Of a DNA stretch of 32,000 bases, positions 2,287 through 32,000 are shown piece after piece. The first letter of the stretch is position 1, and each line of letters starts with the position of its first letter. The translations under genes were made by a program, and so were the position numbers. The notes beneath the pieces were generated by a model. It did not search any database and was not told the origin of the DNA. It was given only the letters and a program-made list of their open reading frames with translations. The stretch spans positions 3,750,001 to 3,782,000 of the forward strand of contig NC_009483.1 of the NCBI RefSeq assembly GCF_000016745.1, read 5' to 3'. Origin of the DNA: Geotalea uraniireducens Rf4 (lineage in GTDB: Bacteria > Desulfobacterota > Desulfuromonadia > Geobacterales > Geobacteraceae).

Positions 2287-2294
2287 CATTATCA
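2287..2294. repeat. Right copy of the 8-bp target-site duplication CATTATCA
   Basis: See 937-944. Confidence 0.9.
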
Positions 2295-2598: not shown

Positions 2599-2875
2599 AG
2601 TATTATAACCAATAGCTCAGAGATGTACTGTTATAGAGTGCATATATTGCAACCATAGCCGTCAACAAAAAATCTGAATTATGCAACTTGGAATGAATAA
2701 TTTACGCGACGAAGAATCTGATTTGAGTTTTTGAGAATATGGGCAAAGGCGAGTCGGTGTCATCGAAAAGAATACTCAGGATAATCGTTCGTTATTTTAT
2801 GTAAGAGAGGCCGTTCTGACTGCTCATGACATTATTGCTGCAAATTGTAAAAACCATTTTATCCCCCTCAGCCGT

Positions 2876-5370: not shown

Positions 5371-5373
5371 AAA

Positions 5374-6663
5374 TTAAAGTCTTATCCTTATTCTTTTGAG
5401 TGGATAACAAATCAGATGCATTAGAACAAATAATAGAGCAATTGTCATAAAAGCGACTACTGCAGTTTCAAAACTCGTTCGATATAGTGAAAGCAGTACC
5501 ATCAAGTAATATATAGAAAATATTTTTATATATTTGTTATCTGAAAGCATACCTTTATATAATATTGATGTTAATAAACTAAATAAGATTGCAATCACAA
5601 TAACGCCTACATATCCTGCGTTCATATAACCCATTACTGGAATAGTAAATGTTTGCGTAGAATTATTATAAAACCCTTCACCAAATAGCTTGGTAGTAAT
5701 AATAGCTTCAATACCTGTGTCAGGTTTGAACGGTAATAAAGCGCGAGGCACTATGGCAATAGGTGTTAATAATATATATTTAAACAATAACCAGTCGAAC
5801 TGATACCTATTGTGCAAAAGCATAATCCCGCAGTCTACCGGATTAAGGTCTGTGAGTAATGACAATAATGGAACAAGAAGTGAATATTGCCGATCCAATG
5901 TAGAAAGATTTAGTGATAATCCAGCCCTAGCTAGATTTGCAAAAAATAGTACATTTATGATTATGAAACCAAATAAAATAACATTTATAATTCGTAATCT
6001 CAGCCGACCAATAGAAATGTAATAAAAAAAGATCGACAGCAGCAATACAGCGTATTCAGTCCTACTGGCTGTTTTATTTATATAAAAGAGCATACAAAAC
6101 AAAACAACTACTGCTATAATTACAAATACATAATTTCTATCGATATATCTTATCATCAGTATCATCATTGGCAATACTGATAAACTAGCAAGAACATTCA
6201 AATACCAGCTACCTTGCGCCTGGTTCATTGTCACTTCGAACAAATTATATGATTTATAGAAATACAAGAAATCATGATATTTAACAACATTTGCAATATA
6301 TGATATGGCAATAAAAATGGCTGTCAACAATACAAGAGAAGTGAATGAATGTTTATTGAAATTGAATAGTTTTGTAGCCCTGTCACACACGTTTTTATTA
6401 TTAACCCAAAATAACAAGCCTATTGAAAATATGGTGATGAATAATAAACCGATAAAAAGATAAAGATTTATGCTAGTAATGGCCTCTTTATCAAAATAAA
6501 ACAAATAGAGATCATATTTAAACATTAATAGGGGTTTTAATGAGTAGAGAACAAAATGCCATGCAAAAACAAGCATCAAAGCATAGTTTGAATGCTTCTT
6601 AAAGCAAATTGTTGCGAAAAATATACATGCAATTGCATTCGCTATGATTAATAAAATTGTCAT
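5374..6663 (-). CDS. wzy: Polytopic membrane protein, O-antigen polymerase (Wzy)-like
   Basis: 429 aa, very AT-rich and almost entirely hydrophobic, with roughly 10 or more TM-like segments. It is embedded between glycosyltransferases and sits in the same cluster as a Wzx flippase. The assignment rests on context and topology, not on a recognised motif. Confidence 0.6.
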   Translation of the reverse strand: MTILLIIANAIACIFFATICFKKHSNYALMLVFAWHFVLYSLKPLLMFKYDLYLFYFDKEAITSINLYLFIGLLFITIFSIGLLFWVNNKNVCDRATKLFNFNKHSFTSLVLLTAIFIAISYIANVVKYHDFLYFYKSYNLFEVTMNQAQGSWYLNVLASLSVLPMMILMIRYIDRNYVFVIIAVVVLFCMLFYINKTASRTEYAVLLLSIFFYYISIGRLRLRIINVILFGFIIINVLFFANLARAGLSLNLSTLDRQYSLLVPLLSLLTDLNPVDCGIMLLHNRYQFDWLLFKYILLTPIAIVPRALLPFKPDTGIEAIITTKLFGEGFYNNSTQTFTIPVMGYMNAGYVGVIVIAILFSLLTSILYKGMLSDNKYIKIFSIYYLMVLLSLYRTSFETAVVAFMTIALLFVLMHLICYPLKRIRIRL

Positions 6664-6665
6664 AT

Positions 6666-7559
6666 TTATAAATAAAAGCCCTCAACAAAGCTTAAATTTA
6701 TCAATTTAAATACGTCATAGTTTTTTTTAAATCTTTTTGAGAATACAAAACATGTAATGGTCTTAATATAAAATAGAACACAATAAATATATTTGAGAAC
6801 ATTATTCTGTTTCAGTAAATAATAAACTTTATTTCGTATCATATGTCTTATTGTAAAGTGACTTTCAAGACCACCGGTTAAACTGCTTACTTTATGATAG
6901 AAATCAATATGTGGGTAATAGTACATGGATATATTATGTTTGTATAGCCTATAACAAAAGTCAGTATCATCGAAGTAAACAAAATACTTTTCGTCCATGA
7001 TTCCGACTATGTCAAAAACACACTTCTTAATTAACATACAACATGTTGGTGCATATTGTATTTGTTTTTGATAATCATACTGCCCATTATCATGTTCATT
7101 CATTCCAATATGGTAGTTTGAATAACCTTTCCATTTGCTAAAATAACCACCTGCAAACCATATTAATGATTTATTGTCATGATATATCATTTTTGGGACA
7201 ATCACATCGCAATTGCATTTACTCATTGAATCCATTAGTTTTTCAAGCATAGATTGTTCGAATTCAACATCATTATTAATTAAAAGTATATGCCCGCACT
7301 CGTTAGAAACTGCTTTTTCAATACCTTGATTATTACCTGCTGCAACACCTACATTTGTATTGTTGGGTAAAATAACTATACGAGAATCATCATAGTTTTT
7401 GAGCCGACCTAAAGTGTCATCAGTTGACGCATTATCAACAATGTAGAGAATGAAGATTTCATACGATTGCGAAAGCATAGACTCCATGAAATCTTCAATT
7501 ACATCACCGCTATTATAGGTGACTGTGACGACACCAACTTTAGAAGGTCTTTCAACCAT
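6666..7559 (-). CDS. Glycosyltransferase, family 2
   Basis: The N-terminus VGVVTVTYNSGDVIEDFMESMLSQSYEIFILYIVDNASTDDT, together with DDTDFCYR, fits GT2 of the rhamnosyltransferase-like subgroup. Confidence 0.85.
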   Translation of the reverse strand: MVERPSKVGVVTVTYNSGDVIEDFMESMLSQSYEIFILYIVDNASTDDTLGRLKNYDDSRIVILPNNTNVGVAAGNNQGIEKAVSNECGHILLINNDVEFEQSMLEKLMDSMSKCNCDVIVPKMIYHDNKSLIWFAGGYFSKWKGYSNYHIGMNEHDNGQYDYQKQIQYAPTCCMLIKKCVFDIVGIMDEKYFVYFDDTDFCYRLYKHNISMYYYPHIDFYHKVSSLTGGLESHFTIRHMIRNKVYYLLKQNNVLKYIYCVLFYIKTITCFVFSKRFKKNYDVFKLINLSFVEGFYL

Positions 7560-8682: not shown

Positions 8683-9290
8683 CAGGATACTTTCTCCCAT
8701 TCATTTGAGTTGTGGTTATATCGTCTGATTAATTTTGCTGGTGTTCCTGCTACTAAACAATAATCTGGTATGTTCTGTGCGACCACAGTATTTGCTGCGA
8801 CAATACAATGTTTACCGATTGAAACCCCTGGAAGAATTACGCTGTTATTGTATATGTAGGTCTGGTCACCGATCGACACTGGACGCACTTCAATTTTCTG
8901 TAGATTTATGGGAATTTCAATATCGTCATATAAATGATTTATGTCTGTGATGGTAACGTTTGAAGTGATAACAACATTTTTGCCAATTGTAATATTTTTA
9001 GCACACGTTATGTGAGCATTTTGATGTATTTGAGTGTAATCGCCAACAATAAACTCTGGACTAAAGGTTTGAGAACCATATGCACCTAGTACTTCAATTC
9101 TGCAATTTTTAAATATTATGACTCTGCTGCCTAATGACCAATTCTTTAAACCTGAAAATAATATCGGCTTATTTATTAAACATCGTCTCCCCATGTGTTT
9201 AACAAATAATTTATAGAAAAGACTAGTTTTTATGGTTACGTATAAATTGCTTAACTTGTTAAGATAATCGTACGCATTGTATTTGAACAT
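8682..9290 (-). CDS. Hexapeptide-repeat (left-handed beta-helix) O-/N-acyltransferase
   Basis: 202 aa with repeated [LIV]-G-x-x-x-x hexads, for example ITIGKNVVITSNVTITD and SIGDQTYIYNNSVILPGVSIGKHCIVAANTVV. This is the WbbJ/Maa-like family. Confidence 0.8.
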   Translation of the reverse strand: MFKYNAYDYLNKLSNLYVTIKTSLFYKLFVKHMGRRCLINKPILFSGLKNWSLGSRVIIFKNCRIEVLGAYGSQTFSPEFIVGDYTQIHQNAHITCAKNITIGKNVVITSNVTITDINHLYDDIEIPINLQKIEVRPVSIGDQTYIYNNSVILPGVSIGKHCIVAANTVVAQNIPDYCLVAGTPAKLIRRYNHNSNEWEKVS

Positions 9291-9311
9291 GTCCTATTTA
9301 CCTCAGATTAG

Positions 9312-10211
9312 CTATTTCACTAGTGAAACCGCTATGATTTTAAGCAATTTCCTAATTATTTTTGCGATTAATTTATCAATTAAACTGTTTTTGACTGACT
9401 CGGAATTAACAATAGACCACATAAATAGTTTATTTATCCCACAAGCATGTTTAATATTATTTTGGTTTGAGTGCATCATAGCTATTTTCATGCTTTCAAA
9501 CGATAAACCAGGTGTAAGTCTGTTATTTATGCGAACTCGATAACGCCAAGTAGCGTTTGGGTAAACATATAACTTGGCATTAAATAAGCATCTTAATATA
9601 AAATCGCGATCTTCGAATAAAAGATTGTCATTAAAACCGCCCAACTCGTGAAATATTGATTTTCTTATAATAAATCTTTGATACGGCGCCTCCCAGTTGA
9701 ACAACATGTCCATAGTTAAAATATATTTATTTGTCAGCGTAATGGGATTTTTGCCAAAAAATTTGAATGCACTATTAGCGACTTGTTTGCTGTCTTCATC
9801 AATCAATTCAGAATCTGATATGACAACATCTGCATTATTTGATAACAAGAATTGCAATGGACCTGATATGCCGTTCACGAGAAACTCATCGTCACTTGCA
9901 ATCGTTGTAAGGTAATCACCTTTTGCAATTGAAACCAGTCTATTCAGAGTTTTGCAAATTCCTGCATTTTGTTGTTTTTCGCAGACAATCCTAGCAAATC
10001 GCCCAGAATGCTTACCTGCCCATTCTTTAGCTACGATATACGTATTATCACGTGATCCATCATCGATAATTATTAACTCGATATTTTCGTAATCACAGTT
10101 ATAGATGCTTTCTAAACATTGCATTACGTATTTATCATGATTATAAGCAGGTATAAGAATTGATACGAGTGGTTTATGTATAGATTCACTTATCTGGGAA
10201 TAATTAATCAC
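9312..10211 (-). CDS. Glycosyltransferase, family 2
   Basis: LVSILIPAYNHDKYVMQCLESIYNCDYENIELIIIDDGSRDNT is a classical GT2 N-terminal signature. ASDDEF serves as the DxD-like segment. Confidence 0.88.
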   Translation of the reverse strand: MINYSQISESIHKPLVSILIPAYNHDKYVMQCLESIYNCDYENIELIIIDDGSRDNTYIVAKEWAGKHSGRFARIVCEKQQNAGICKTLNRLVSIAKGDYLTTIASDDEFLVNGISGPLQFLLSNNADVVISDSELIDEDSKQVANSAFKFFGKNPITLTNKYILTMDMLFNWEAPYQRFIIRKSIFHELGGFNDNLLFEDRDFILRCLFNAKLYVYPNATWRYRVRINNRLTPGLSFESMKIAMMHSNQNNIKHACGINKLFMWSIVNSESVKNSLIDKLIAKIIRKLLKIIAVSLVK

Positions 10212-14951: not shown

Positions 14952-16637
14952 TTACTCCTTGATCAATGTGATACCATCGGTTGAGACAAAGTTTTCTATC
15001 CGTTCAGCCTGCAGGGTGTAAAGTCCAGGCTCCGGCACCTCAACCATAGCGAACAAACGCGACAACCATTTAAGCGCTGGTTGATTACGAGGTCCATGCA
15101 GCACTCGGAATGCAACTTTACGACACCCGGTAAACAGCGACATGCCACGGATTGCACCAAGAATAATCGTATCTTCCAACTGGCGCCCTAAGGCGCGGCA
15201 ACTAACACATAATTCTTCAACAATTAGTTGATCATTATTGCGCTCGCATACGAGCACAGCAATCACACCGCTATCAGACAGGCGGTCCTTCATATGCACA
15301 CTGGCCACGCAAGCATTGACGCACTCTAGGCGTTCAGCCACTTCGGCTTGATTGAAACGCCGAAGTGCAAGATTAAACTGGTTGGTTTTATTGCACAAAT
15401 CGGCTAATCTGGATAGCTGATTAACAGGATTGTAGTGGTAGGTCAGCGAGACTTCCAGACTACGGAAATAGTCTGCCGTATCAAAAGTTTCTGCAAGCAA
15501 TTTTTCGCGCTCAGCATTGGCCTTCATATCCTGCACCCGCTTAGCGTCTTCATCTTCGATTTTCCAGCGCCATAAACCAGGGAAATGTTCCACTGCCAGT
15601 TGTGTCAGGCTAGCATCCAGATTGGCAAACACTGTGTGCACTTGCGGCAGTTGTGCCGCAACCGACGCTAACTCGCCAGGGTTATCGTCAACAAAAAGCA
15701 CTGCGTCTGGTGAAATACGTAATGTGTCGGCAATACGCTTGATAGCGGTGGCCTTCTCCCCCCACGACACTTCCGTGACCGAGAAATCGCCCCACTTCAG
15801 TGGATAGTCGTCACGTTTGTTAAATAGAGTTTCAACATCTGGACGCTCATTACGAGACACAAGTGTGATAAAAATTCCGCGTTGCAGCAGTGACTTTAAA
15901 AAGAATTGAAAATTACGATGTTGCTGCGAAAGTTGGACCCCTTTAATTCCATCTTCACCCAAGACTCCAATATGCAGGGTATTGTCGAGATCGAGTGCCA
16001 CTGCTTTCATGGGGGGGAACACCGCTGCAGGTAACCAGTGACAAGCCAGTTTCCGTGCTATTAGAGGCTGGGCAGCATTACTGACCGGCGTACCGGCCAT
16101 AGCGACACTGCGAAAATCGATCAGATTGACACCGGCTTCGCTGCAGACAGCACCGACATCGGCGAAATAAACTGCTGGCATTGACGTGAAAGATGTTTGC
16201 AGTTCTATCCGCTGCGCATCATTTTCCAGCCAGGTAGCAATAATAACCGGTGCGGTGGTGGCGCTCCGCAACGCTTTCAGTCTGGCGATCAGCCACTCGG
16301 TCCATGCCGCGAAACTCGTATTAGAAAGGTAACGACTGCTATCGAGCCAGATTAGTTCAACATCCGCCGGAGTGTGATTTGCAAACATCAGTGTATCATC
16401 GTAGTCACCGAGCCTGAACTCGGCTTGCCAACAACCATAAGCAATATAAGGGAGTGTTAAGCTGGCAACAGGTTCAAAAGCATGGTTGCGCCATACATTC
16501 ACGAAGATTTTTTTCATTCCAGCCACATCCGGGACAATGCTTTGCAAAGCAAGTCGACTAGGACGGGTCGCAAATAGTGTAGATTGCGCTTCATAGCGCC
16601 AGAAACTCGTATTTAAATGGCGTTGAATTAAATCCAT
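14952..16637 (-). CDS. FkbH-like protein (HAD-superfamily phosphatase subfamily IIIC with an acyl-transfer domain)
   Basis: 561 aa. The HAD motif I is VALDLDNTLHIGVLGEDG. Also present are FVDDNPGE and the C-terminal ELCVSCRALGRQLE segment, matching the conserved SCR-x-LGR cysteine segment of FkbH-family enzymes. It lies next to an ACP gene. Confidence 0.85.
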   Translation of the reverse strand: MDLIQRHLNTSFWRYEAQSTLFATRPSRLALQSIVPDVAGMKKIFVNVWRNHAFEPVASLTLPYIAYGCWQAEFRLGDYDDTLMFANHTPADVELIWLDSSRYLSNTSFAAWTEWLIARLKALRSATTAPVIIATWLENDAQRIELQTSFTSMPAVYFADVGAVCSEAGVNLIDFRSVAMAGTPVSNAAQPLIARKLACHWLPAAVFPPMKAVALDLDNTLHIGVLGEDGIKGVQLSQQHRNFQFFLKSLLQRGIFITLVSRNERPDVETLFNKRDDYPLKWGDFSVTEVSWGEKATAIKRIADTLRISPDAVLFVDDNPGELASVAAQLPQVHTVFANLDASLTQLAVEHFPGLWRWKIEDEDAKRVQDMKANAEREKLLAETFDTADYFRSLEVSLTYHYNPVNQLSRLADLCNKTNQFNLALRRFNQAEVAERLECVNACVASVHMKDRLSDSGVIAVLVCERNNDQLIVEELCVSCRALGRQLEDTIILGAIRGMSLFTGCRKVAFRVLHGPRNQPALKWLSRLFAMVEVPEPGLYTLQAERIENFVSTDGITLIKE

Positions 16638-16670
16638 CAGATCACCCTTTACCTGATAAGAGAAACAGAA

Positions 16671-16765
16671 GGGTCAAATCTCAGCTCATGACACCCCACT
16701 TCCTATTCCCACATTATAATGTTCAATCACCCAATACATCAGGTTCTACGTTCAAATGCTTTCCT
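16671..16765 (-). repeat. Copy 1 of the ~90-bp 'downstream element' that follows type-1 small genes
   Basis: GGGTCAAATCTCAGCTCATGACACCCCACTTCCTATTCCCACATTATAATGTTCAATCACCC..GTTCTACGTTCAAATGC aligns with 18255-18338 at roughly 85% by eye, and partially with 18625-18702. Confidence 0.85.
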
Positions 16766-17038
16766 TCACCCGATATACACCCCATGATGCGCCTCGGTAT
16801 CGGCCCGGTGAGCGGAAAGGTCGGCAGACACGGCATCCATCTTCTTGCTGAGGCGTTCATCTACGGCATCAATCTTTTTATTCAATGCCCCAATCATAAA
16901 GGAGTTATGCTCGATCTTTTCATTCAGCTCATCAAATCGGTTATCAATCTTTCTGTCAAGAGCAGCATGACTTTCAAGAACCAGATCGAATTTGCTGCTG
17001 ATATCTTCGAGTAAGACTTCCAAATTCTCTTTTTTCAT
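16766..17038 (-). CDS. Small coiled-coil protein with tail box, type 1 (copy A; tail shortened by a 2-bp insertion)
   Basis: 90 aa. There is a strong RBS (GGAGGAACGT-ATG). The sequence is MKKENLEVLLEDISSKFDLVLESHAALDRKIDNRFDELNEKIEHNSF...SADLSAHRADTEAHHGVYIG*. It is paralogous to copies C and D. Confidence 0.8.
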   Translation of the reverse strand: MKKENLEVLLEDISSKFDLVLESHAALDRKIDNRFDELNEKIEHNSFMIGALNKKIDAVDERLSKKMDAVSADLSAHRADTEAHHGVYIG

Positions 17039-17113
17039 ACGTTCCTCCGTTATCCGTGAACGTCCGTGACAAACAAAGGTTTACAACTCAAAATTCAAAA
17101 CTCAAAATTGCCC

Positions 17114-17401
17114 CTAATCCCCTTCCTTCACCCGATACACCCCGCGATGCGCCTCGGTATCCGCCCGGTGGGCAGCTACATCAGCGGCAATTCTATCTAT
17201 TTTCTCGCAGAGACTCGTCTCGACCTGTTCCAGTTTCTCCGAAAGCATCTGGTGTCCTTCAGCCACAACTGTCAGCCCATGCTGAAACCCTTCAGTTTGC
17301 AGCGTTATTTGGTGGTCAAACTCGGCAATAATTTCGTGCTTGAAATGTTCCAGCTTGGCATCGAACTTAGCGGAAACACTTTCCAGCTTGGCATCGAACA
17401 T
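17114..17401 (-). CDS. Small coiled-coil protein with tail box, type 2 (copy B; a 5'-truncated near-duplicate of E, possibly a pseudogene)
   Basis: 95 aa. MFDAKLESVSAKFDAKLEHFKHEIIAEFDHQITLQTEGFQHGL...AADVAAHRADTEAHRGVYRVKEGD*. It differs from 20952..~21205 by about a dozen mismatches over ~250 nt by eye. No Shine-Dalgarno sequence precedes its ATG, and homology to E breaks inside the 33-bp repeats. Confidence 0.55.
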   Translation of the reverse strand: MFDAKLESVSAKFDAKLEHFKHEIIAEFDHQITLQTEGFQHGLTVVAEGHQMLSEKLEQVETSLCEKIDRIAADVAAHRADTEAHRGVYRVKEGD

Positions 17402-17477
17402 AGTGGGAAGGGAGCTAAAGGGGGACGTAGTTGATTTGTTGACTTGTTTCTACAAGTCCTCAGCTCCCCGTTCCCTG

Positions 17478-17594
17478 CTACCCGCCCAACAGCGGCACTT
17501 CAAAACCTGCCTGTATGAAATGCTCATCAAAACTCAACGCCACCTTCAGCCGCCCTTCCTTCATGACCACAAAGTAAAAACGGTCCACAAACCC
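17478..17594 (-). pseudogene. Relic of the C-terminal third of a PIN-domain (VapC-like) toxin
   Basis: Hand translation gives (stop,stop)SWGFVDRFYFVVMKEGRLKVALSFDEHFIQAGFEVPLLGG*. The pattern vD..sFvvM+..g...A.sFD.HF.qaGF is the typical C-terminus of VapC PIN toxins. Two stops lie immediately upstream, and there is no start and no partner antitoxin. Confidence 0.5.
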
Positions 17595-17709
17595 CCAGCT
17601 TTATCAGGACGCCCCTTATACAGGACAAGCGCGTTCTCGAATCAAAAGGGGGCAAGCCGCCAGGATCAGGCTTCCAAGAATACAAGTTCCAAAGGCCTTA
17701 TCTGCCGTC

Positions 17710-18000
17710 CTATTCCGATCTTAATAAGCGCTTTCCGTGGACGACAGCAGCAACAGTTATGAGTTCCCCTTCAATACGATAAATAACCCTGTAGCTGAAC
17801 ACGAAATGCTCTCTGAACGCATCGTCCTTCATCTCCGGCACAACACGCCCCGAAAGGGGGAATTCCGAGAGTTGCCTCGTGACGCCGATGATTTTCGTAA
17901 CGACCGCCTTTGCATAAAAGGGGGAATCCCTTTCGATGTACTCTGCTATCGCTTCAACATCTGCCAGCGCCTGAGGCGACCATCTTACGCTGTGTGCCAT
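17710..18000 (-). CDS. Type II toxin, RelE/ParE family
   Basis: 96 aa. MAHSVRWSPQALADVEAIAEYIERDSPFYAKAVV...LSEFPLSGRVVPE...REHFVFSYRVIYRIEGELITVAAVVHGKR is a typical ParE/RelE-superfamily layout. It overlaps the upstream antitoxin gene by 16 nt. Confidence 0.88.
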   Translation of the reverse strand: MAHSVRWSPQALADVEAIAEYIERDSPFYAKAVVTKIIGVTRQLSEFPLSGRVVPEMKDDAFREHFVFSYRVIYRIEGELITVAAVVHGKRLLRSE

Positions 18001-18173
18001 TTCTTAAGGCGAGCTTCAGCCTCCTCCTGAGAGTAAGTACCCTGTTCTTCTGCCACCTGAAGGCCATGCTGAATCTTTTCGATGACATAGAGATGGTACT
18101 GGATATCCTCCAGGGAACAATTGTCGGGAAGCTTGTTCAGCAAGTTCTTTACATCATCCTTAGCAGTATTCAC
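17985..18173 (-). CDS. Antitoxin partner of the RelE/ParE toxin
   Basis: The ORF is open from 18254 (a TTG). The best-supported start is GTG 18173, preceded by AAGGAG at 6-nt spacing. That gives (M)NTAKDDVKNLLNKLPDNCSLEDIQYHLYVIEKIQHGLQVAEEQGTYSQEEAEARLKKWHTA, small and acidic. It is translationally coupled to the toxin. Confidence 0.7.
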   Translation of the reverse strand: MNTAKDDVKNLLNKLPDNCSLEDIQYHLYVIEKIQHGLQVAEEQGTYSQEEAEARLKKWHTA

Positions 18174-18254
18174 GCCATGCTCCTTAAAAACCGGTCCCTT
18201 TCTCTCTCGCCCGTTTGCTTCGCTCACTTGGAGAAGCATAAGGGAGAAGCACAA

Positions 18255-18338
18255 GGGTCAGATCTCAACTTTTGACAGTCCCCATTTCCTATTCCCACAT
18301 CATAATGTTCAATCACCCGATACATCTACGTTCTACGT
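18255..18338 (-). repeat. Copy 2 of the downstream element
   Basis: It aligns with 16671-16765 and contains the ACATCATAATGT near-palindrome and two to three GTTCTAC-type heptamers (18323-18343). Confidence 0.85.
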
Positions 18339-18590
18339 TCAAATGCTTTCCTTCACCCGATAAACTCCATGGTGGGCCTCGGTATCAGTCCGGTGCGCAG
18401 CCAAGTCTGCAGCGACACTGTCGATTTTTTCGTTAAGTACATTAATTAGAAATGAATTGTGCTCAATTTTTTCATTTAATTCACTACGGGTATCACGGAT
18501 CTCTGCCCTAAGAGATTCATGCCCCTCAAGCACCAAATCAAATTTGCTCCGTATATCTTCAAGCAGTATTTCCAGATGATCTTTTTGCAT
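18339..18590 (-). CDS. Small coiled-coil protein with tail box, type 1 (copy C)
   Basis: The start is chosen at ATG 18590 (AAGGAGGTTTTG-ATG). The sequence is MQKDHLEILLEDIRSKFDLVLEGHESLRAEIRDTRSELNEKIEHNSFLINVLNEKIDSVAADLAAHRTDTEAHHGVYRVKESI*. The longer ORF-track version (to 18659) has no RBS. Confidence 0.8.
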   Translation of the reverse strand: MQKDHLEILLEDIRSKFDLVLEGHESLRAEIRDTRSELNEKIEHNSFLINVLNEKIDSVAADLAAHRTDTEAHHGVYRVKESI

Positions 18591-18624
18591 CAAAACCTCC
18601 TTGTCTCCGCTTAGCTGGAATAGA

Positions 18625-18702
18625 GCCTTTCCTATTACCAGCTCAAAACGCTCAATCACCAGATATATCAGGGTTCTACGTTCTACGGTCTACAGTCTAC
18701 GT
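18625..18702 (-). repeat. Copy 3 (partial) of the downstream element, including a 5-unit heptamer array at 18673-18707
   Basis: CCTTTCCTATTACCAGCTCAAAACGCTCAATCACCAGATATATCAGG is followed by GTTCTAC GTTCTAC GGTCTAC AGTCTAC GTTCAAA. It is homologous to copies 1 and 2 but has more heptamer units. Confidence 0.75.
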
Positions 18703-18765
18703 TCAAATGCTTTCCTTCACCCGATACACCCCGTGATGCGCCTCAGTATCCGCCCGATACGAGGC
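18703..18765 (-). pseudogene. Orphan tail-box relic 1 (3' end of a type-1 small gene, no 5' part)
   Basis: Hand translation gives ...(stop)IVCSASYRADTEAHHGVYRVKESI*. It has the same tail as copy C, with an in-frame stop just upstream and no start codon. Confidence 0.8.
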
Positions 18766-18813
18766 AGAGCAGACAATCTAGACCAATCTCAACAGGGACA
18801 CAAGGAAAGAATA

Positions 18814-19197
18814 TCATGCCCCTTGATCAATCAGGATTCTTGCTATGACTTTTTTCATTTCGGGAACATGCTCTGAACAAACCACATATATTGTTTCCGC
18901 ATCAATATCGAAATAGTGGTGAGTAATAATATCCCTCATTCCCTTTGCCTTTTTCCAGTCTATTTCAGGATAATTGACAAGTAGTTTTGAATCTGTCAAT
19001 TTATCTACCTGCTTTAATACCTCTCCGATATTAATCAGCTGCATGCAAATACTGTCCAGCTTCTCAAGACCAATATCGTCTTTCAGGAAATCATCACTTG
19101 ATTGAATTGCTTGAAATCTTTTGAATATTTGATCCAATGCCCAGATAATATTCTTGAAATCCTCAAGAAGCAGCTCCCTGTCATACATATATAGCAT
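18814..19197 (-). CDS. hepT: HepT-type toxin (DUF86, RNase of MNT-HepT modules)
   Basis: 127 aa. GMRDIITHHYFDID contains the R-x4-H-x-Y motif. It overlaps the MNT gene by 17 nt. Confidence 0.88.
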   Translation of the reverse strand: MLYMYDRELLLEDFKNIIWALDQIFKRFQAIQSSDDFLKDDIGLEKLDSICMQLINIGEVLKQVDKLTDSKLLVNYPEIDWKKAKGMRDIITHHYFDIDAETIYVVCSEHVPEMKKVIARILIDQGA

Positions 19198-19477
19198 CCT
19201 GCTCTATTCTGCGTTTCAGGGTTTCATTCATTTTGTCTCTAAGCCTTACCACGTCAACTTTACCACCCAAGGCTTCTTCAACTGCCTGCTTCACTCCTAT
19301 CAGATAATATAAATCAGGCTTTTCCAGTTCTACCACAATATCAATATCACTCTCTTCAGTAACATCGCCCCTCGCGTAAGACCCGAATATTCCAATCCTT
19401 TTTACCTTAAACTCTGTTGCAAAAAAGTCTTTGTGGCTACGCAAAAAATCAATTATTTGACCGGTCGTGCGCTCCAT
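19181..19477 (-). CDS. mntA: MNT-type nucleotidyltransferase antitoxin (MntA)
   Basis: 98 aa. GIFGSYARGDVTEESDIDIVVE shows the G-S-x-x-R-G ... D-x-D minimal nucleotidyltransferase signature. The RBS is GAGGAGG. Confidence 0.88.
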   Translation of the reverse strand: MERTTGQIIDFLRSHKDFFATEFKVKRIGIFGSYARGDVTEESDIDIVVELEKPDLYYLIGVKQAVEEALGGKVDVVRLRDKMNETLKRRIEQDAIYV

Positions 19478-19493
19478 AGCTCCTCCTCAATAC

Positions 19494-19742
19494 TTACCCT
19501 TCCTTCACCCGATAAACCCCATCATGCGCCTCGGTATCGGCCCGATGGGCAGCTACATCATCGGCGACGGCATCGATTTTCTTGTTCAGGGTGTCGATCT
19601 TGAAATCAACCAGATCAAAGCGTTCATCGGTCTTGCGGCCAAGCTCACGAATCTCACTGCGAAGCACTTCATGCCCTTCGAGGACCAGGTCAAACTTGCT
19701 GCTGATATCTTCGAGTAAAACTTCCATATTCTCTTTTTTCAT
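19494..19742 (-). CDS. Small coiled-coil protein with tail box, type 1 (copy D)
   Basis: The start is chosen at ATG 19742 (GGAGGAACGT-ATG, the same leader as copy A). The sequence is MKKENMEVLLEDISSKFDLVLEGHEVLRSEIRELGRKTDERFDLVDFKIDTLNKKIDAVADDVAAHRADTEAHDGVYRVKEG*. Its stop lies only 16 nt from the mntA start. Confidence 0.8.
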   Translation of the reverse strand: MKKENMEVLLEDISSKFDLVLEGHEVLRSEIRELGRKTDERFDLVDFKIDTLNKKIDAVADDVAAHRADTEAHDGVYRVKEG

Positions 19743-19835
19743 ACGTTCCTCCGTTAGCCGTGAATGTCCATGAACATCCGTGGCAAACAAAGGTTTACAA
19801 CACAAAATTCAAAACTCAAAATTGCCTCAAATCAT

Positions 19836-19879
19836 CTTCCTTCACCTGATACATCCCATGATGCGCCTTCCTTATCGGC
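19836..19879 (-). pseudogene. Orphan tail-box relic 2 (degenerate, with a 1-nt indel)
   Basis: CTTCCTTCACCTGATACATCCCATGATGCGCCTTCCTTATCGGC aligns to the box with substitutions and one extra nucleotide. It abuts the stop codon of the ATPase gene at 19880. Confidence 0.7.
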
Positions 19880-20278
19880 TTAAATCATATTCAGGTGAAT
19901 TGCGCTCTTTTGTTTAAGACAACCCCCTATGGCTGGCAAAGAACGTATCACATCCTGATATACGAGATCGGATGCAAGTACCGTAAGATTTCCGTGGGCC
20001 ATCCGTGCCTCTATCAGCCTCCCCATCTCTCTAGCAGCAGCGGGACGAGACCGCAAAATCCAGAGGTTGTCAACAAGAAGATTCGTAATCATGGTATATC
20101 TGTTGAAATAATCAGCAAATTTGCCCTGTACGACAGATTGTGCCATCTCATCGACGACCTGCTCACTGCCGACCCTCATGACGCTTTGGACCCCGTGCAA
20201 GGTCTCGGTTATCATCTTGAGAAGCCTGGTTTTCCCAGCCCCTGAAGGACCGTAGACGAATAGAAGATTTGCAGACAT
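19880..20278 (-). CDS. Mini AAA+ ATPase resembling DnaA/Hda domain III (N-terminal alpha/beta part only)
   Basis: NLLFVYGPSGAGKTRLLKMI (Walker A) ... FNRYTMITNLLVDNLWIL (Walker-B position, DD replaced by DN) ... GNLTVLASD aligns by eye with E. coli DnaA [20 protein letters not shown]...YRSVDALLIDDIQFF...NQQIILTSD. The start is chosen at ATG 20278 (GGAGGATAAA-ATG). The ORF-track start is 20290. Confidence 0.65.
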   Translation of the reverse strand: MSANLLFVYGPSGAGKTRLLKMITETLHGVQSVMRVGSEQVVDEMAQSVVQGKFADYFNRYTMITNLLVDNLWILRSRPAAAREMGRLIEARMAHGNLTVLASDLVYQDVIRSLPAIGGCLKQKSAIHLNMI

Positions 20279-20348
20279 TTTATCCTCCATTTCTTCAGAA
20301 AGGGACAGGCTGCCAGCGGGAACTCTTACTTCCCCCGGTACTCAGCGC

Positions 20349-20651
20349 TTAGGCATTTCTCAAACGACTTCTCGCCCATGCCGGATTTTTTCTGCAATCA
20401 AGAATCGCATATACGAGAATATCGTTGCCATCGATTCGATAGTAGACAGCAAACGGAAACCGCTTTGAAAGCATCCGGTAATATACGAGAAAAAATGCAG
20501 GATGAATGCCTGCGTGGATGAGCAATGAATCTATATCAGAGAAAAGCGAATCGAGGAAATACCCTCCAAGACCGCTTTCCTGTTTTTCATAGAAATGAAA
20601 GCCATCCGTCAGATCCTGTGATGCTGCTTCAAAAAGGCGAATCTTCTTCAT
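20349..20651 (-). CDS. Type II toxin, ParE/RelE family
   Basis: 100 aa. MKKIRLFEAASQDLTDGFHFYEKQESGLGGYFLDSLFSDIDSL...FPFAVYYRIDGNDILVYAILDCRKNP is the typical ParE-like pattern. It shares an ATGA overlap with the antitoxin gene. Confidence 0.85.
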   Translation of the reverse strand: MKKIRLFEAASQDLTDGFHFYEKQESGLGGYFLDSLFSDIDSLLIHAGIHPAFFLVYYRMLSKRFPFAVYYRIDGNDILVYAILDCRKNPAWARSRLRNA

Positions 20652-20863
20652 AGCGATTCACGGATCTTCTTTTTGGCATCGTCCCAGTCAATGAAGCAAG
20701 CTTCACCAACCGTTACGGCTTCTTCGCGCTGGGCGAGGACATCTCCATGCCATGGGGGTGAAAGTGTTTCGCTGGCGTTCCGGCACAAATCTTCCCACAA
20801 GCGTTCCATGACACTGATCTTTTCCGCCGTTGTCAGATTCTCCAACTTGATTGCCACTCCCAT
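20648..20863 (-). CDS. Antitoxin ('addiction module component', TIGR02574-like)
   Basis: 71 aa. LTTAEKISVMERLWEDL....SPPWHGDVLAQREEAV..GEACFIDWDDAKKKI matches the L-x-x-x-E-R-x-x-L-x-x-x-L-W-D-S-L ... W-H ... W-E-E-V-K layout of that family. The RBS GGAGG lies 6 nt upstream. Confidence 0.8.
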   Translation of the reverse strand: MGVAIKLENLTTAEKISVMERLWEDLCRNASETLSPPWHGDVLAQREEAVTVGEACFIDWDDAKKKIRESL

Positions 20864-20951
20864 AACCAGCCTCCATTCTTATGCGACTTGCGTGGTCAGG
20901 CTAGACTTTCGGACATTAGCCACGCACAAATCACCCCCACTCAACAAATCC

Positions 20952-21317
20952 TTAATCCCCTTCCTTCACCCGATACACCCCGCGATGCGCCTCGGTATCC
21001 GCCCGGTGGGCAGCTACATCAGCGGCAATTCTATCAATTTTCTCGCAGAGACTCGTCTCGACCCGCTCAAGCTTCTCCGAAAGCATCTGGTGCCCTTCAG
21101 CCACAACAGTCAGCCCATGCTGAAACCCTTCAGTTTGCAGCGTTATTTGGTGGTCAAACTCGGCAATGATTTCGTGTTTGAATTGTTCCAGCTTGGCATC
21201 GAACATAGTGGAAACACTTTCCAGCTTGGCATCGAACTTAGCGGAAACATCTCCCAGCTTAGCATCAACGACCTTAATCAACATCTGCTCAATACGTACT
21301 AGATCATTCTCATCCAT
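20952..21317 (-). CDS. Small coiled-coil protein with tail box, type 2 (copy E, full length)
   Basis: The start is chosen at ATG 21317 (GGAGG 8 nt upstream). The sequence is MDENDLVRIEQMLIKVVDAKLGDVSAKFDAKLESVSTMFDAKLEQFKHEIIAEFDHQITLQTEGFQHGLTVVAEGHQMLSEKLERVETSLCEKIDRIAADVAAHRADTEAHRGVYRVKEGD*. Confidence 0.8.
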   Translation of the reverse strand: MDENDLVRIEQMLIKVVDAKLGDVSAKFDAKLESVSTMFDAKLEQFKHEIIAEFDHQITLQTEGFQHGLTVVAEGHQMLSEKLERVETSLCEKIDRIAADVAAHRADTEAHRGVYRVKEGD

Positions 21318-21365
21318 AACAAAAACCTCCAACGAAATCTGGGGTCACGCGGGGTTTCATAATGT

Positions 21366-22412
21366 TCAGTAAACCGAAAACCCATCATGCGTCTCGGTAT
21401 CCGCCCCGGCCACGCTTTTCAGATACCATCGGTACACGTTACGCAGTCCCTCTTCCAGATTAATCTTATGTTTCCAGCCAATGGCATGAATCCGCGAGAC
21501 GTCGGAAAGCTTGCGCGGCGTGCCGTCGGGCTTGGTTGAATCGAAGACCAGTTCGCCGGCAAAGCCGACTATTTCCTTGATCCGCAGCGCCAGTTCACTG
21601 ATGGTGACCTCCTCGCCGCTGCCGATGTTGATCAAGGCAGGGACTGGGGACTGGGGACCAGGAATTAGCAATGAACGGTACTGTTCTTCCGGCAATGTCA
21701 TTAGAAACAGGCAGGCGTCGGCCAGGTCATCCACGTGGATGAACTCCCGCTTTGGAGTTCCCGACCCCCAAATGGTGACGTGCGCCTGGTGTTTTTCTCC
21801 GTTCCCCGTTCCCCGTTCCCCGTTCCCCATTTTTGCCTCGTGAAACTTGCGGATCAGCGCAGGAAGGACATGGGACGTTTCCAGGTCAAAGTTATCATTG
21901 GGGCCGTAGAGGTTGGTCGGCATGGCGGAGACAAATCTGGTGCCGTACTGACGGTTGTAGGACTGGCACATCTTGATGCCGGCAATCTTGGCAATGGCGT
22001 AAGCTTCGTTGGTGGGCTCAAGGGGGCCGGTGAGCAGGTACTCCTCCTTGATCGGCTGCGGCGCCAACTTCGGATAGATGCAGGTGCTGCCGAGGAAGAG
22101 GAGCTTTGTCACGCCATTCAGCCAGGCATGGTGGATGACGTTGGTCTGGATCATCAGGTTGTCATAGATGAATTCGGCTGGGAAGCTGTTATTGGCGACA
22201 ATGCCACCGACCTTGGCTGCGGCAAGGAAGACGTATTCAGGCTTTTCCTTATGAAAGAAGTCAGCTACTGCCGCCTGATTGCGCAGGTCGAGCTCACTAC
22301 TGGTCCTTACTACTATATTTTTGTAGCCTTCCGCTTCAATTTTCCTGACAATGGCAGAACCAACCAAGCCCCTATGTCCGGCCACATATATTTTTGAATC
22401 CTTATCCACCAT
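21366..22412 (-). CDS. fcl: GDP-L-fucose synthase (GDP-4-keto-6-deoxy-D-mannose 3,5-epimerase/4-reductase)
   Basis: [48 protein letters not shown] and [17 protein letters not shown] are collinear with E. coli Fcl as I recall it. ATG 22412 is preferred over the TTG at 22421. The protein carries two repeat-encoded loop insertions and a foreign C-terminal tail (see findings). Confidence 0.92.
21801..21828. repeat. Perfect heptanucleotide tandem repeat (GTTCCCC)x4 inside fcl
   Basis: Read directly: units at 21801-07, 21808-14, 21815-21 and 21822-28. On the coding strand (GGGGAAC)4 encodes [13 protein letters not shown]. Confidence 0.95.
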
Positions 22413-22494
22413 AAACCTCAAACACGAATTGCACCAATGATCACGAATTTAAAGAACAAATCTTTTATAATCAACTCTGCTGTGGTTAAATGAC

Positions 22495-29363: not shown

Positions 29364-30104
29364 TCATGAGCTGAACTCTGTAGGCATTCTGTACTCAAAG
29401 CTTTGAACAAAGTCTTCACCCAGGTACACTTGCAGCGTGTGAATTTCCGTTACGATCATGGCTCGCACATATGAATAGACGAGGTCTTTTGAAACCTCAA
29501 ATTTTTCGCCAAAGATGTTAAGTGTTCTATCGCTCCTGATAAATCTAATGAGCGAAATGGTGCCGTCCGGGAGAAAATCAAGTTTTGGCATCCTGGTATT
29601 TGGCCCCAGCGTCAAGGGCTTGAATTTGTCAGCTTCAATAACCTCCAGTGGCGTTTTCCCCTTGAGATAGCTGTAACGGTGATTCTTGTTGTGAAACTGC
29701 TGGAAATTCTTGCTTTGCCGCTTGAGCATGGAATAGCTTGTGAACCACTGGCGGCGAAAAAACTTTTTGTCATAGGTATCGTTGAAGCTCTCTATTACGC
29801 CATCGCGCCACGGTTCCGCAACAGGGATAAAAACAGGATGAACGCCGAAGTAGAGACATAGTCGCAGCACCAGACCAAGTGACCTCGGATAGCGGTTACT
29901 GCCACGGAAACTGAGTTCATTGTCCATTTGCAGGAAGTCGGGAAGCCCCATTGACTTCCAGCAGCGCAGCAAACCCTGTGCAATGTTGTCATCCTCCTTG
30001 GTGCGATTTGATTCGATGAAGACCCGATGGCTGTACAGATCAATCACATTCATCGAGTAAAATCTGCCGTCACTCTTGATGTAGCGGGGGCCAACAAGAT
30101 CCAT
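29364..30104 (-). CDS. Transposase, catalytic part (rve DDE domain plus C-terminal beta-rich extension); +1 frame relative to orfA
   Basis: HQMDLVGPRY..., FLQMDNELSFRG and PWRDGVIESFNDTYDKKF supply the D, D and E segments of an integrase-core fold. This frame is open upstream as far as the A8 run (..KKTRYSPKGVEYPYFTEALCCNNIHQM..). Confidence 0.85.
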   Translation of the reverse strand: MDLVGPRYIKSDGRFYSMNVIDLYSHRVFIESNRTKEDDNIAQGLLRCWKSMGLPDFLQMDNELSFRGSNRYPRSLGLVLRLCLYFGVHPVFIPVAEPWRDGVIESFNDTYDKKFFRRQWFTSYSMLKRQSKNFQQFHNKNHRYSYLKGKTPLEVIEADKFKPLTLGPNTRMPKLDFLPDGTISLIRFIRSDRTLNIFGEKFEVSKDLVYSYVRAMIVTEIHTLQVYLGEDFVQSFEYRMPTEFSS

Positions 30105-30534
30105 CTGATGGATGTTGTTGCAGCACAGGGCTTCGGTAAAGTACGGGTACTCGACCCCTTTGGGGGAATATCTCGTTTTTTTTAACGAGTCCTTCCCGCT
30201 TCAGGGTCCGGTTAATGGTGCTGTCAGAGCGAAACGGTAACCCCAGCTTATGCAGCTCCCACTTGATAGCGGAAACGCCAATCTGTGCAAATGGTGACGA
30301 GTCCAGGCGGTTTCTGGTGGAGACAATAATCTCCTTATCTACGATGCTGAGTTCAGACGGTCTTTTAAGTGGCGCTCTTGAGTGTTCCTTGTACCAGTCA
30401 GTCGCGCCAGATTGATACCGGTTCAACCACTTAAAAAACCACTTCTTGGAGCGATCAAGGCTTGTATAGACTGCCTTGGGTGATTCGCCTGCAAGATGGC
30501 GCTGGACTGCTTGTTTCCTGAGTTCTTCTTCCAT
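30070..30534 (-). CDS. Transposase, N-terminal HTH part (orfA)
   Basis: MEEELRKQAVQRHLAGESPKAVYTSLDRSKKWFFKWLNRYQ...SAIKWELHKLGL.. are helix-turn-helix-like segments. The product runs out of frame after the A8 run at 30176-30183. Confidence 0.8.
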   Translation of the reverse strand: MEEELRKQAVQRHLAGESPKAVYTSLDRSKKWFFKWLNRYQSGATDWYKEHSRAPLKRPSELSIVDKEIIVSTRNRLDSSPFAQIGVSAIKWELHKLGLPFRSDSTINRTLKREGLVKKNEIFPQRGRVPVLYRSPVLQQHPSDGSCWPPLHQE

Positions 30535-30682
30535 GCGGATGTTCTCCCCTCAAGTTGAAATCACAGAGAACATTGTAGCTGATATTTCTAATGAAGGTAA
30601 CCGATGTCTTGACACAAAAAAGGGCGTTAAGGGTAACCGATGTCTTGACACATCCGGGTAACCGATGTCCTGACACTTGTCA

Positions 30683-31290
30683 GTTAACAGATAGATGAGC
30701 AAGTCGGGGCCAGCACCATGGTCGGCAAAATTTTTTATTGTCGGCGATGTAATTTTCGAGACAAGGTTGCTCCGCAGATCAGTCAGGCGAAAAATTGCGC
30801 CCCCTGGGGAAAAAGGAACATCAAAACCGAAATACGCTTCGTCAATATAATGTTTGCTAGGGAAAATACCGGTCTCCGGCCTAAAATTATAATAAATCTT
30901 ACCGCTCCCAGGTTCATTACCTATGAGCACAGAAGAAAAAACAAAACCAATCTCGTCGTTTTGCATGAACGGCAAGGTTTTTTCCAGAAAATCTGGTTCC
31001 ATCAAGTCGTCTGAAAATAGCAGCTTTCCATACTCGCCCTTGGCTTCCGCTATGCACCTCCGCCAGTTCTCGACAGGTCCAATATTAATGCTGTTGCAAA
31101 ATACACGCACACGGGAGTCTTTGGCAGCATGCTCTCGGCATATCGCCAAGGTCTGATCAGAGCTAGCATTGTCCACAACAACGATCTCAAGATCAGTATA
31201 AGTCTGATCGAGGGCTGACTGAATACATGGCCCTATAAATTTTTCCCTGTTGTACACTGGGATAAGTATACTGACAATAGGTAGCTTCAT
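30683..31290 (-). pseudogene. N-terminal part of the IS-split GT2 glycosyltransferase
   Basis: MKLPIVSILIPVYNREKFIGPCIQSALDQTYTDLEIVVVDNASSDQT... and LLFSDDLM (DxD-like) are present. The ORF-track product (to 30550) ends in IS-derived read-through (..DKCQDIGYPDVSRHRLPL..). Confidence 0.85.
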
Positions 31291-31360: not shown

Positions 31361-32000
31361 TCATCGCCCACCCTTTCTCTTCATACGGTGGACAACCTTT
31401 CTAATTAAGTTGCGTTCAATGTACTTCAAGGCTTTTCTCAACACATACTGGTAGTATATGAATCTGCCAAAATACTCCTTCAGGATATGGCATCGATCTC
31501 TTTCGAAATCGGGATCACCGGCAGTTGCGCTTACTCCCCCGGCATCATCAAAGATGGCAACCAAGATAGGGAGATATACGTAGGTAAAGTCCTGATCGTT
31601 ATAACAGACAAGATTGAAAAAATAATCACCGGCAGACTTGTATTTCAGATCGTATGAGTGCTTTCGGAACAACGCCTGGGGATAAAAGGTAGCCTGGTGG
31701 GGAATGTTGATCTTCATCAGCTTGTAGGGCGTAAACGGACCATCGTAAATCTTGTGCCATTTAGGAAGGTAGACATCACCGTAATACACTTCGTTTTCCT
31801 TTTGCAAGTAGGCTGCAACCTTGTGCAATACATTCAAGAGGATGTCGTCGCTGCCCAGGAAATAGAGCCAGTCACCACTGGCCGCTCGAGCCCCTTTGTT
31901 CATGGCATCATAGATTCCATTGTCAGGGTTACTGCACCAATAATCAATGTAATCCTCGTATTTTTTAATAATTTCCACTGTCCCGTCGATTGAACCGCCA
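31361..32000 (-). CDS. Glycosyltransferase family 2 (partial; N-terminus lies beyond the right window edge)
   Basis: The frame is open to nt 32000 (..GGSIDGTVEIIKKYEDYIDYWCSNPDNGIYDAMNKGARAASGDWLYFLGSDDIL..). The DGS-like, NKG and SDD segments are typical of small GT2 enzymes. Confidence 0.8.
   Translation of the reverse strand, partial: GGSIDGTVEIIKKYEDYIDYWCSNPDNGIYDAMNKGARAASGDWLYFLGSDDILLNVLHKVAAYLQKENEVYYGDVYLPKWHKIYDGPFTPYKLMKINIPHQATFYPQALFRKHSYDLKYKSAGDYFFNLVCYNDQDFTYVYLPILVAIFDDAGGVSATAGDPDFERDRCHILKEYFGRFIYYQYVLRKALKYIERNLIRKVVHRMKRKGGR

Follow-up and report, generated by a model that had tools for sequence, protein, structure and literature searches.

Repeated coding ends of a small-protein family and interleaved toxin–antitoxin modules at the fcl/O-antigen junction of Geotalea uraniireducens Rf4

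Introduction

Complete integrons carry an adjacent tyrosine recombinase of the IntI type, and CALINs are clusters of attC sites without an integrase. The attC sites themselves are imperfect palindromes that fold as single strands, conserve structure over sequence and lie outside open reading frames (ORFs) or at their very end. Here we analyze a 32,000-nucleotide (nt) stretch of the Geotalea uraniireducens Rf4 genome (RefSeq assembly GCF_000016745.1, contig NC_009483.1, positions 3,750,001 to 3,782,000; hereafter the window, with positions counted from its first letter) in which a recurrent 'box' divides the segment between fcl and an O-antigen cluster into units interleaved with toxin–antitoxin (TA) modules. 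Like integron arrays and CALINs, this segment holds short units in a single orientation, each ending in a recurring element, with TA cassettes interleaved and no integrase that need adjoin. Unlike them, it uses as its recurring element the end of a coding gene, conserved as a peptide, without palindrome, R''/R' cores or fixed crossover point, and the unit boundaries in relatives do not track this element.

Tandem integrative elements that insert at the 3' end of a tRNA, tmRNA or protein gene restore the end of their target, and a duplicate of the 3' fragment stays behind. The window displays the same succession of intact gene, cargo and 5'-truncated gene end followed by native DNA, in nested and direct copies, but there is no integrase or excisionase, the cargos measure 0.8–3.8 kb, the truncated copies range from ~20 to 298 nt and the target is a multi-copy paralogous family instead of a single conserved gene. 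In Rhs and contact-dependent-inhibition loci, displaced toxin tips each retain a fragment of the conserved core. These orphan modules share with our locus the use of a conserved coding segment as homology and the presence of sharp-ended partial copies, direct and beside addiction-like pairs; the polarity is however reversed here, the 3' end being conserved and the variable DNA lying downstream, and the small proteins carry no toxin domain. Junctions of O-antigen and capsule clusters are exchange hot spots, the classic case being the JUMPstart sequence upstream of enterobacterial clusters. Likewise, fcl and a shared leader flank clusters that differ among close relatives, with mosaic identity and remnants at the junction, although this leader contains no recognizable JUMPstart or ops sequence. 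We know of no description of a small-protein family together with TA modules at such a junction.

Toxin–antitoxin 'islands' have been reported in which close pairs of different classes are not explicable by tandem duplication, and preferential incorporation into one region was proposed (PMC2701414). The modules studied here differ in that they alternate with one gene family and its relics. In the papers searched on G. uraniireducens TA loci and on Geobacter multicopy sequences, neither the family, its invariant tail nor the alternation with TA modules was found described, and the Chunjie miniature inverted-repeat transposable element is a different element. By analogy, the array appears most like stacked remnants of O-antigen or capsule junctions combined with Rhs and contact-dependent-inhibition orphan modules, with the flavor of a TA island, and unlike an integron. 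We propose that recombination, part of it homology-driven and part illegitimate, shaped the array at a hot spot of O-antigen exchange where TA modules were kept as hitchhikers, an explanation to which we give slightly better than an even chance.

The box encodes the C-terminus of a small-protein family

A prior reading of the sequence alone had reported eight direct copies of the box. Repeat finding and a hidden Markov model (HMM) of the tail peptide recovered all eight, in a single orientation with their genes on the minus strand, at the positions first given or at most about 10 nt away. In the window, the box appears as an 86-nt repeat family of six copies and a 30-nt family of seven, at 80–100% identity, at 16777, 17137, 18362, 18726, 19514, 20975 and 21377, all in the same orientation; the eighth copy (19837–19866), partial and carrying an indel, was retrieved by the tail HMM. 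The 52-nt core is matched exactly twice (17125–17176 and 20963–21014), against none expected from 100 shuffles. The repeat families D1 to D8 of the window are all direct, and one weak pair makes up the inverted repeats. Five box copies terminate small ORFs, designated genes A to E, and three are devoid of a gene body (relic 1, relic 2 and the fcl tail). This 'tail box' corresponds to the last 17–29 codons of the paralogous ORFs A–E and is not a non-coding element.

As a coding segment, the box specifies the conserved C-terminus, KIDAVAADLxAHRADTEAHHGVYRVKEG*, of small single-helix proteins that make up a lineage-specific family; genes A to E all end in ..AAHRADTEAHxGVYRVKEG*. A profile built from A–E collected more than 2,322 proteins at E≤0.001, a lower bound since 8,000 candidates were scored; they originate from Geotalea, Geobacter, Desulfuromonadales and Thermodesulfobacteriota and are called hypothetical where named. 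A set of 86 loci supplied 86 distinct tails, in which H-R-x-D-T-E-x-H and Y-R-V-K-E are near-invariant and their synonymous sites vary freely (GAT 50/GAC 36, TAC 49/TAT 35, CAT 54/CAC 32, ACC/ACG/ACT 57/15/11). Because the peptide is nearly invariant while synonymous positions are free, selection acts on the peptide, and conservation of the box at the DNA level is ruled out by the same codon table.

The AlphaFold2 model of the gene D product (P0004) predicts one helix over residues 3–72 with a predicted local distance difference test score (pLDDT) of 91, the final GVYRVKEG being unstructured. Repeats of 11 residues (KKIDAVDEKLS) differ in number among family members. In gene E, the corresponding 33-nt (11-codon) tandem repeats at 21186–21266 number three in the window and two in the related loci L095 and L087 (loci from other genomes bear L numbers throughout); in locus L002, gene 4 has three more 11-codon units than gene 2 (L002 6178–6247). 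Searches of Pfam, NCBIfam, PADLOC and PHROGs with the small protein yielded no fitting family, only weak coiled-coil noise (Apolipoprotein, DUF1664 and phasin, for example), and gene D had zero matches in plasmid and phage collections. Apparent members of 395–600 amino acids (L082, L069) turned out to be overlapping-frame artefacts, the real genes encoding ~150 amino acids. A 39-nt degenerate box pattern run over the genome collection was too strict, returning four loci only and missing the source genome. The family thus described is abundant and unannotated, carries an unusually invariant C-terminal motif and is tied to polysaccharide loci of metal-reducing bacteria.

Genomic niche of the family

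In the 86 loci, 106 family genes were identified, commonly in tandem pairs and triplets. They stand at the head of polysaccharide clusters and beside TA modules in Geobacteraceae and relatives. TA parts account for about 11 of 27 credible same-strand downstream neighbors (six MntA-type nucleotidyltransferases, two Unstab_antitox, HigB, FitA and DUF2281) and polysaccharide genes for about nine (Ugd-type dehydrogenases, Wzx flippases, Gmd, UDP-GlcNAc 2-epimerase and a WbpB/D-like enzyme). A wider census, covering 150 ORFs no farther than 2.5 kb from family genes, yields a similar distribution to which Wzc, Wza, CpsB, DegT, Phd, PemK and TumE are added, and its 25 most frequent families include none of recombinases. 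The same cargo type follows different small genes in two distant cases only.

Locus L002, from another Geobacter genome, holds a second array of the same design beside tRNA-Gln/tRNA-Glu, in the order relic, gene, MntA/HepT, gene, degenerate TA module, relic, gene, MntA/HepT, gene, gene. This locus also contains a non-coding 'element 2' (GGGGAAGTTAGTCAACAAATTAACAACGTCCCC) in five copies, after most family genes (coordinates include 2164–2214, 3644–3694, 5008–5058 and 6357–6407). The element is weakly matched in the window at ~17430–17475, where it folds slightly better than shuffles (z = -1.6), and was not found in the other 90 loci.

The gap between a family gene and the next gene is often short, 17 nt to MntA and 25–51 nt to polysaccharide genes, and in L026 the start of the antitoxin gene is overlapped. 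Such spacing on one strand is what would be expected if the small helical protein were a working partner or leader gene of TA or polysaccharide operons, the array consisting of duplicated functional three-gene modules and the orphan tails being kept because the box DNA or its peptide would serve the neighboring gene, for instance as a regulatory region or C-terminal tag. A tripartite TA system would likewise be marked by a single constant partner family, a conserved gene order and co-transcription. The order E-type gene, Unstab_antitox, toxin is kept in the window and in L026, where the antitoxin is 52% identical and overlaps the end of the E-type small gene; box tails are in frame on Fcl and several ATPase homologs, and relics endure over long divergence. 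However, the neighbors belong to many families with no relation to one another, the distance to polysaccharide genes is as short as that to antitoxin genes, and the small protein matches no defense or TA family. Locus L087 has counterparts of E and A (E' and A') without any TA module, E' being frameshifted, and in L088 a stop codon precedes the fcl relic. Most relics are out of frame or lack a start codon, and a promoter and terminator scan gave no consensus at the boxes. We regard a partner role as an unlikely explanation of the array.

Architecture of the junction segment

The features of the segment are listed below in the direction of transcription.

21366–22421, minus strand: fcl, GDP-L-fucose synthase (Pfam Epimerase/GDP_Man_Dehyd), 100% identical to Geotalea uraniireducens Fcl P0121
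21333–21365, minus strand: start of the leader (TGAACATTATGA...), fused to the box relic of fcl and located upstream of gene E; same junction in L087, L088 and L095
20952–21317, minus strand: gene E, intact, 121-amino-acid small helical protein with the box at its end
20648–20863, minus strand: antitoxin (Pfam Unstab_antitox, E=1.4e-14)
20349–20651, minus strand: ParE-like toxin, weak match that misses the family cut-off (Pfam ParE_toxin, E=7.7e-4)
19880–20290, minus strand: mini DnaA/IstB-like P-loop ATPase, 136 amino acids (Pfam Bac_DnaA, E=2e-10), its stop codon abutting relic 2
19836–19879, minus strand: relic 2, orphan box with a 1-nt indel, left end at ~nt 43 of the 87-nt tail consensus
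19494–19742, minus strand: gene D, intact, 82-amino-acid small helical protein (P0004) with the box at its end
19181–19477, minus strand: MntA (Pfam NTP_transf_2, E=1.7e-16), starting 17 nt after the gene D stop codon
18814–19197, minus strand: HepT (Pfam HepT-like, E=1.2e-19), forming a TA pair with MntA
18703–18765, minus strand: relic 1, orphan box ~50 nt after the HepT stop codon, left end at ~nt 39 of the consensus
18592–18702, minus strand: partial leader copy that separates relic 1 from gene C and contains 7-nt repeats of the GTAGAAC type (repeat families D7/D8, Tandem Repeats Finder)
18339–18590, minus strand: gene C, intact, 83-amino-acid small helical protein with the box at its end, its tail identical to that of P0001
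18256–18338, minus strand: O-antigen leader copy downstream of gene C (compare L089, L087 and L006)
17985–18254, minus strand: putative antitoxin, without family match
17710–18000, minus strand: ParE toxin (Pfam ParE_toxin, E=9e-19)
17410–17709, minus strand: degenerate stretch with one diverged copy of element 2, from translations and repeat comparison
17114–17401, minus strand: gene B, 5'-truncated copy of E (repeat family D2, alignment of E, B and E')
16766–17038, minus strand: gene A, small helical protein truncated by a 2-nt insertion in the box (..GVYIG*); A' of L087 is its intact ortholog
16638–16765, minus strand: O-antigen leader, placed right before the gene that opens the variable cluster (14952–16637), with homologous stretches in L087, L089 and L006

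The sequence-only reading saw discrete cargos bracketed by boxes and named them as TA parts and a mini-ATPase; the bracketing is borne out, and Pfam domain matches support those assignments. The topology it pointed to, an intact gene followed by cargo and by a 5'-truncated tail with native downstream sequence, is real, with three nested cases in the window and others in L002, L034 and L026. The gene ends act as direct repeats around the inserts: a 298-nt repeat (17112–17409 and 20950–21247, 95% identical), formed by B and E, flanks a 3.8-kb block; the D box and relic 1 surround MntA-HepT; and the E box and relic 2 surround the antitoxin-ParE-ATPase unit, whose Unstab_antitox, ParE-like and ATPase genes may constitute a three-gene module. 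Within the degenerate stretch at 17410–17709, a C-terminal PIN/VapC remnant is plausible from the translation, with no profile match. The last 12–15 codons of fcl (21366–21410) are box-derived and form an in-frame fusion; among the 120 closest Fcl homologs, only P0121 and P0124 possess this tail, and in L088 a stop codon lies ahead of the same relic. The Logan contig L005 matches window positions 18697–20982 at 100%. Exact-sequence look-ups with P0001, and with an Fcl beginning at TTG, gave no match.

Positions 21795–21828 of fcl hold a 7-nt tandem repeat (TTCCCCG, 4.9 copies) that produces an in-frame low-complexity insert missing from the L087 ortholog, and a CCCCGTTCCC stretch at 17459–17484 resembles it (family D13). 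The 561-amino-acid ORF earlier called fkbH had zero Pfam matches.

The fcl/O-antigen junction in relatives

The orthologous hldE-gmd-fcl junction was reached through Fcl homologs in five further lineages. The content downstream of fcl was as follows.

L089/L090: 217 nt containing the leader only, then a Wzx-led cluster; no small gene
L091: a further cluster with its own first gene, 18 nt from fcl; no small gene
L088: the same box relic behind a stop codon; the contig ends there
L087: in-frame relic, frameshifted E', intact A', leader and another O-antigen cluster; no TA module
L095: fcl relic, E, antitoxin-ParE-ATPase, relic 2, D and MntA, 96.8% identical to window 21546–19147

Homology between L095 and the window stops at 19147, inside HepT, and yet another cluster follows. 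At this breakpoint, the start of HepT is fused to an NTP_transferase ORF (L095 2316–3152), leaving MntA without its toxin. All four junctions that could be read through lead to a different O-antigen cluster, and the fcl/O-antigen junction is hypervariable. The junction does vary among relatives, but the differences seen do not proceed by single box units: one is the 3.8-kb block between the arms of the 298-nt repeat, and another is an illegitimate breakpoint internal to HepT.

The whole 3.8-kb block is absent from L087, and an alignment of E, B and E' reveals that E' has none of the changes specific to E or to B at the sites distinguishing these two. The array-free state with two genes therefore looks older, and the block together with the duplicated gene end looks derived. 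On these comparisons, the block looks like an insertion with regeneration of the gene end, and its signature is the one left when a circle with part of an E-type gene inserts by a single crossover. Compared with L087, identity drops from 95% over hldE-gmd to 83% over fcl-E, which fits imported DNA. The G+C content is 28–33% at 5000–7000 and 9000–10000, within the O-antigen cluster, against 53–61% in the backbone from fcl to the heptosyltransferase gene (21–29 kb), which fits a foreign origin of the variable cluster.

Orphan tails

Each orphan was aligned to an 87-nt consensus of the tail, and its left end was expressed as a consensus position. The ends fall at ~31 (L034), ~39 (relic 1), ~41 (fcl relic), ~43 (relic 2), ~44 (L006), ~48 (L002:4477), ~64 (L024) and ~68 (L026), and two longer remnants end at about -25 (L002:2043) and -210 (B). 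The ends are sharp: sequence to the right is near-consensus, sequence to the left is unrelated, and the cargo side contains no common motif. Each relic in turn forms the left edge of a longer duplication (families D5–D8; L026). Relic 2 opens a repeat (19650–19868) similar to 16946–17154, relic 1 opens a leader repeat, and the L026 relic opens a repeat, at least 106 nt long, which takes in the antitoxin start and brackets a HicAB insertion.

Two relic junctions recur beyond the window. The fcl/box junction is common to three lineages with Fcl identities of 79–100%, and the ATPase/box junction is common to ATPase homologs that are 62–77% identical and reside in other polysaccharide loci without a family gene; several of these ORFs read into the box relic (..VQKENEAHHGIYRVKES*, ..VQTDTEAHRG..). 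Both junctions are old and inherited and not recent insertion scars. The mini-ATPase itself is very rare, with 13 homologs (131–170 amino acids) in 5.8 billion proteins, and its contexts in L092 and L093/L094 have polysaccharide and TA surroundings.

Random degradation of tandem duplicates combined with random insertion of TA modules, the box playing no part in rearrangements, would be the simplest history of birth and decay of paralogs. Tandem pairs and triplets are common in the family, frameshifted or truncated copies exist (A, B and E' of L087), and the box is conserved for reasons of protein sequence, all of which such a history would accommodate. It is contradicted by relic ends that are non-random and bounded sharply instead of gradually and by a 3.8-kb block enclosed in a 298-nt direct repeat. 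It also accounts poorly for gene bodies deleted outright, the 0–130 nt between the cargo stop codon and the relic being too short for a decayed body, and for the strong enrichment of TA parts beside family members. We consider plain decay to have a low probability.

Tests for site-specific recombination

The gene-end topology could also result from a dedicated site-specific system, in which the 3' half of the box would be the attachment site and non-autonomous cassettes with partial boxes (TA modules, the ATPase, small genes) would be inserted at the 3' end of a small gene by a recombinase encoded elsewhere, with regeneration of the gene end. Integrative elements act in this manner at tRNA genes, and integron cassettes at attI/attC. 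The repetition of intact gene, cargo and truncated box in the window, L002, L034 and L026 agrees with this scheme, as do relic left ends that are sharp and clustered within ~40 nt, the ATPase family retaining the same box junction across contexts and the clean in-frame fusion at fcl.

By its other properties, the box is a coding motif and not a DNA recombination site, the role that the sequence-only reading had preferred. Its conservation is that of a peptide, the free synonymous variation implying no constraint on the DNA, and single strands of the box, in either polarity, show no more folding than shuffled controls (z = -0.85 to +0.5). With attC sites defined by R'' (RYYYAAC) and R' (GTTRRRY) cores 50–140 nt apart, zero core pairs were found on both strands of 16600–21500, against 0.9 expected. 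Since there are neither core pairs nor excess folding, an attC-type site is excluded, and the suggested resemblance to integron cassettes goes with it. An RNA element or tRNA as the target was considered and dismissed, a Rfam gathering scan and an ARAGORN scan of the window being empty.

The sequence-only reading had noted neither a recombinase nor attC-type cores, an observation that holds for the cores in the segment and can be extended for the recombinase: no tyrosine, serine or HUH recombinase was found either in the window or across seven further annotated contexts (~110 kb in total, including L002, L006, L087, L089, L092 and L093). No element-encoded integrase lies between the boxes, where the ORFs are TA parts, the P-loop mini-ATPase and small helical proteins. 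Moreover, the left ends of relics occupy at least eight distinct positions with no shared motif on the cargo side, breakpoints in close relatives lie outside the boxes (inside HepT and at the inner end of the 298-nt repeat), two of the three TA modules of L002 are not followed by a relic, the cargos of different loci are unrelated apart from the two distant cases, and plasmids and phages gave no match to the family. The duplicated gene end is the only testable defining feature of a cassette system that the locus displays, and we judge such a system quite improbable. The more novel proposition that the 3' half of the box (about the HRADTE codons to the stop codon) is the attachment site of an unrecognized cassette-capture system operating on a protein-coding gene end seems to us very improbable; in this version, a trans-acting recombinase or nuclease encoded elsewhere in Geobacteraceae genomes would insert TA pairs, the mini-ATPase and small genes, each with its own partial box, building arrays of addiction or defense functions beside surface-polysaccharide loci. 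A site-specific process underlying the clustered sharp orphan ends would represent a new kind of cassette system.

A putative leader shared by polysaccharide clusters

An element of ~90 nt had been noticed downstream of some boxes. It comes after A, C and relic 1, is present in L089 in the interval that separates fcl from the O-antigen genes, and precedes polysaccharide genes in L087 and L006. Because it is present in L089 without a small gene, and before polysaccharide genes elsewhere, this element looks like a leader shared by polysaccharide clusters. The conserved sequence (..TTGAACATTATGATGTGGGAATAGGAA..TTGAGATCTGACCC..TCTC) spans 16638–16765 and 18256–18338 in the window, 4590–4700 in L087, 9020–9095 in L089 and 10440–10480 in L006. 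It had no match in Rfam and may be a regulatory element, analogous in position to JUMPstart. The leader encloses a 14-nt box-like stretch (GATGTATCGGGTGA), and from its sequence the fcl relic looks like a join of the box with this stretch.

A recombination model for the array

According to the explanation that we favor, genes for the small protein were amplified at the head of polysaccharide clusters, in this genome between hldE-gmd-fcl and the variable O-antigen cluster. Their direct repeats (the box, longer paralogous stretches and the leader) would offer short patches of homology and turn the junction into a recombination hot spot. Homologous recombination, by single-crossover insertion of circles, unequal exchange and deletion between repeats, would operate there together with occasional illegitimate joins. 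During turnover of the O-antigen cluster, segments would be duplicated, inserted and deleted, yielding intact genes, 5'-truncated copies and orphan tails. TA modules landing between repeats would tend to persist because their loss is costly to the cell. The stabilizing effect of such modules is established in other systems, for example in repeat-rich arrays such as superintegrons. A dedicated recombinase would not be required. A tandem paralog array shaped by homologous recombination should have direct repeats and rearrangement ends within stretches of high identity, and this is what the array displays: families D1 to D8 are direct, the block is bounded by a 95% repeat and relics lie at the left of longer repeats. 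The analysis establishes the identity of the box, the niche of the family, the variability of the junction, the block flanked by repeats and the age of two relic junctions, whereas this pathway, its link to O-antigen exchange and the stabilizing role of the TA modules are inferred.

Several observations weigh against this model. Eight of the 10 orphan left ends fall within nt 31–68, an interval of 38 nt, for which uniform breakage gives P ~2e-5 to 6e-7, and the clustering keeps P≤3e-4 even when three undetected long relics are allowed for. Simple homologous exchange between complete boxes cannot yield truncated boxes, so that an extra step is needed; an array of this origin would depend on RecA and have hybrid genes at its junctions, not truncated ones. 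Two features have a cassette-like aspect: the ATPase family keeps its own 3' box over long divergence, and the duplicated antitoxin start of L026 has a 3' fragment of the box at its left end. Finally, the direction of events rests on a single outgroup, L087.

The sequence-only reading was right in its description and sound in its argument from topology, and the mechanism it preferred is unsupported. Its alternative, recombination among paralogs, comes nearer the mark but leaves unexplained the clustering of orphan left ends inside the box. Should the recombination model be true, the locus would provide a sequence-level example of short coding segments of a multi-copy family serving as portable homology at a polysaccharide exchange hot spot and would show how TA modules get trapped there.

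Other observations

Farther from the array, an ISL3-family transposase gene (1031–2272) lies past the distal end of the O-antigen cluster. At 29364–30534, an HTH_23 ORF and, after it, an integrase-core (rve) ORF stand beside family-2 glycosyltransferase ORFs (30550–31290 and 31361–31978). Outside the window, L001 encodes at 1981–5457 a 1,159-amino-acid protein with an extracellular contractile injection system (eCIS) core domain and a sub-cut-off match to a nuclease domain, about 1 kb from a family gene.

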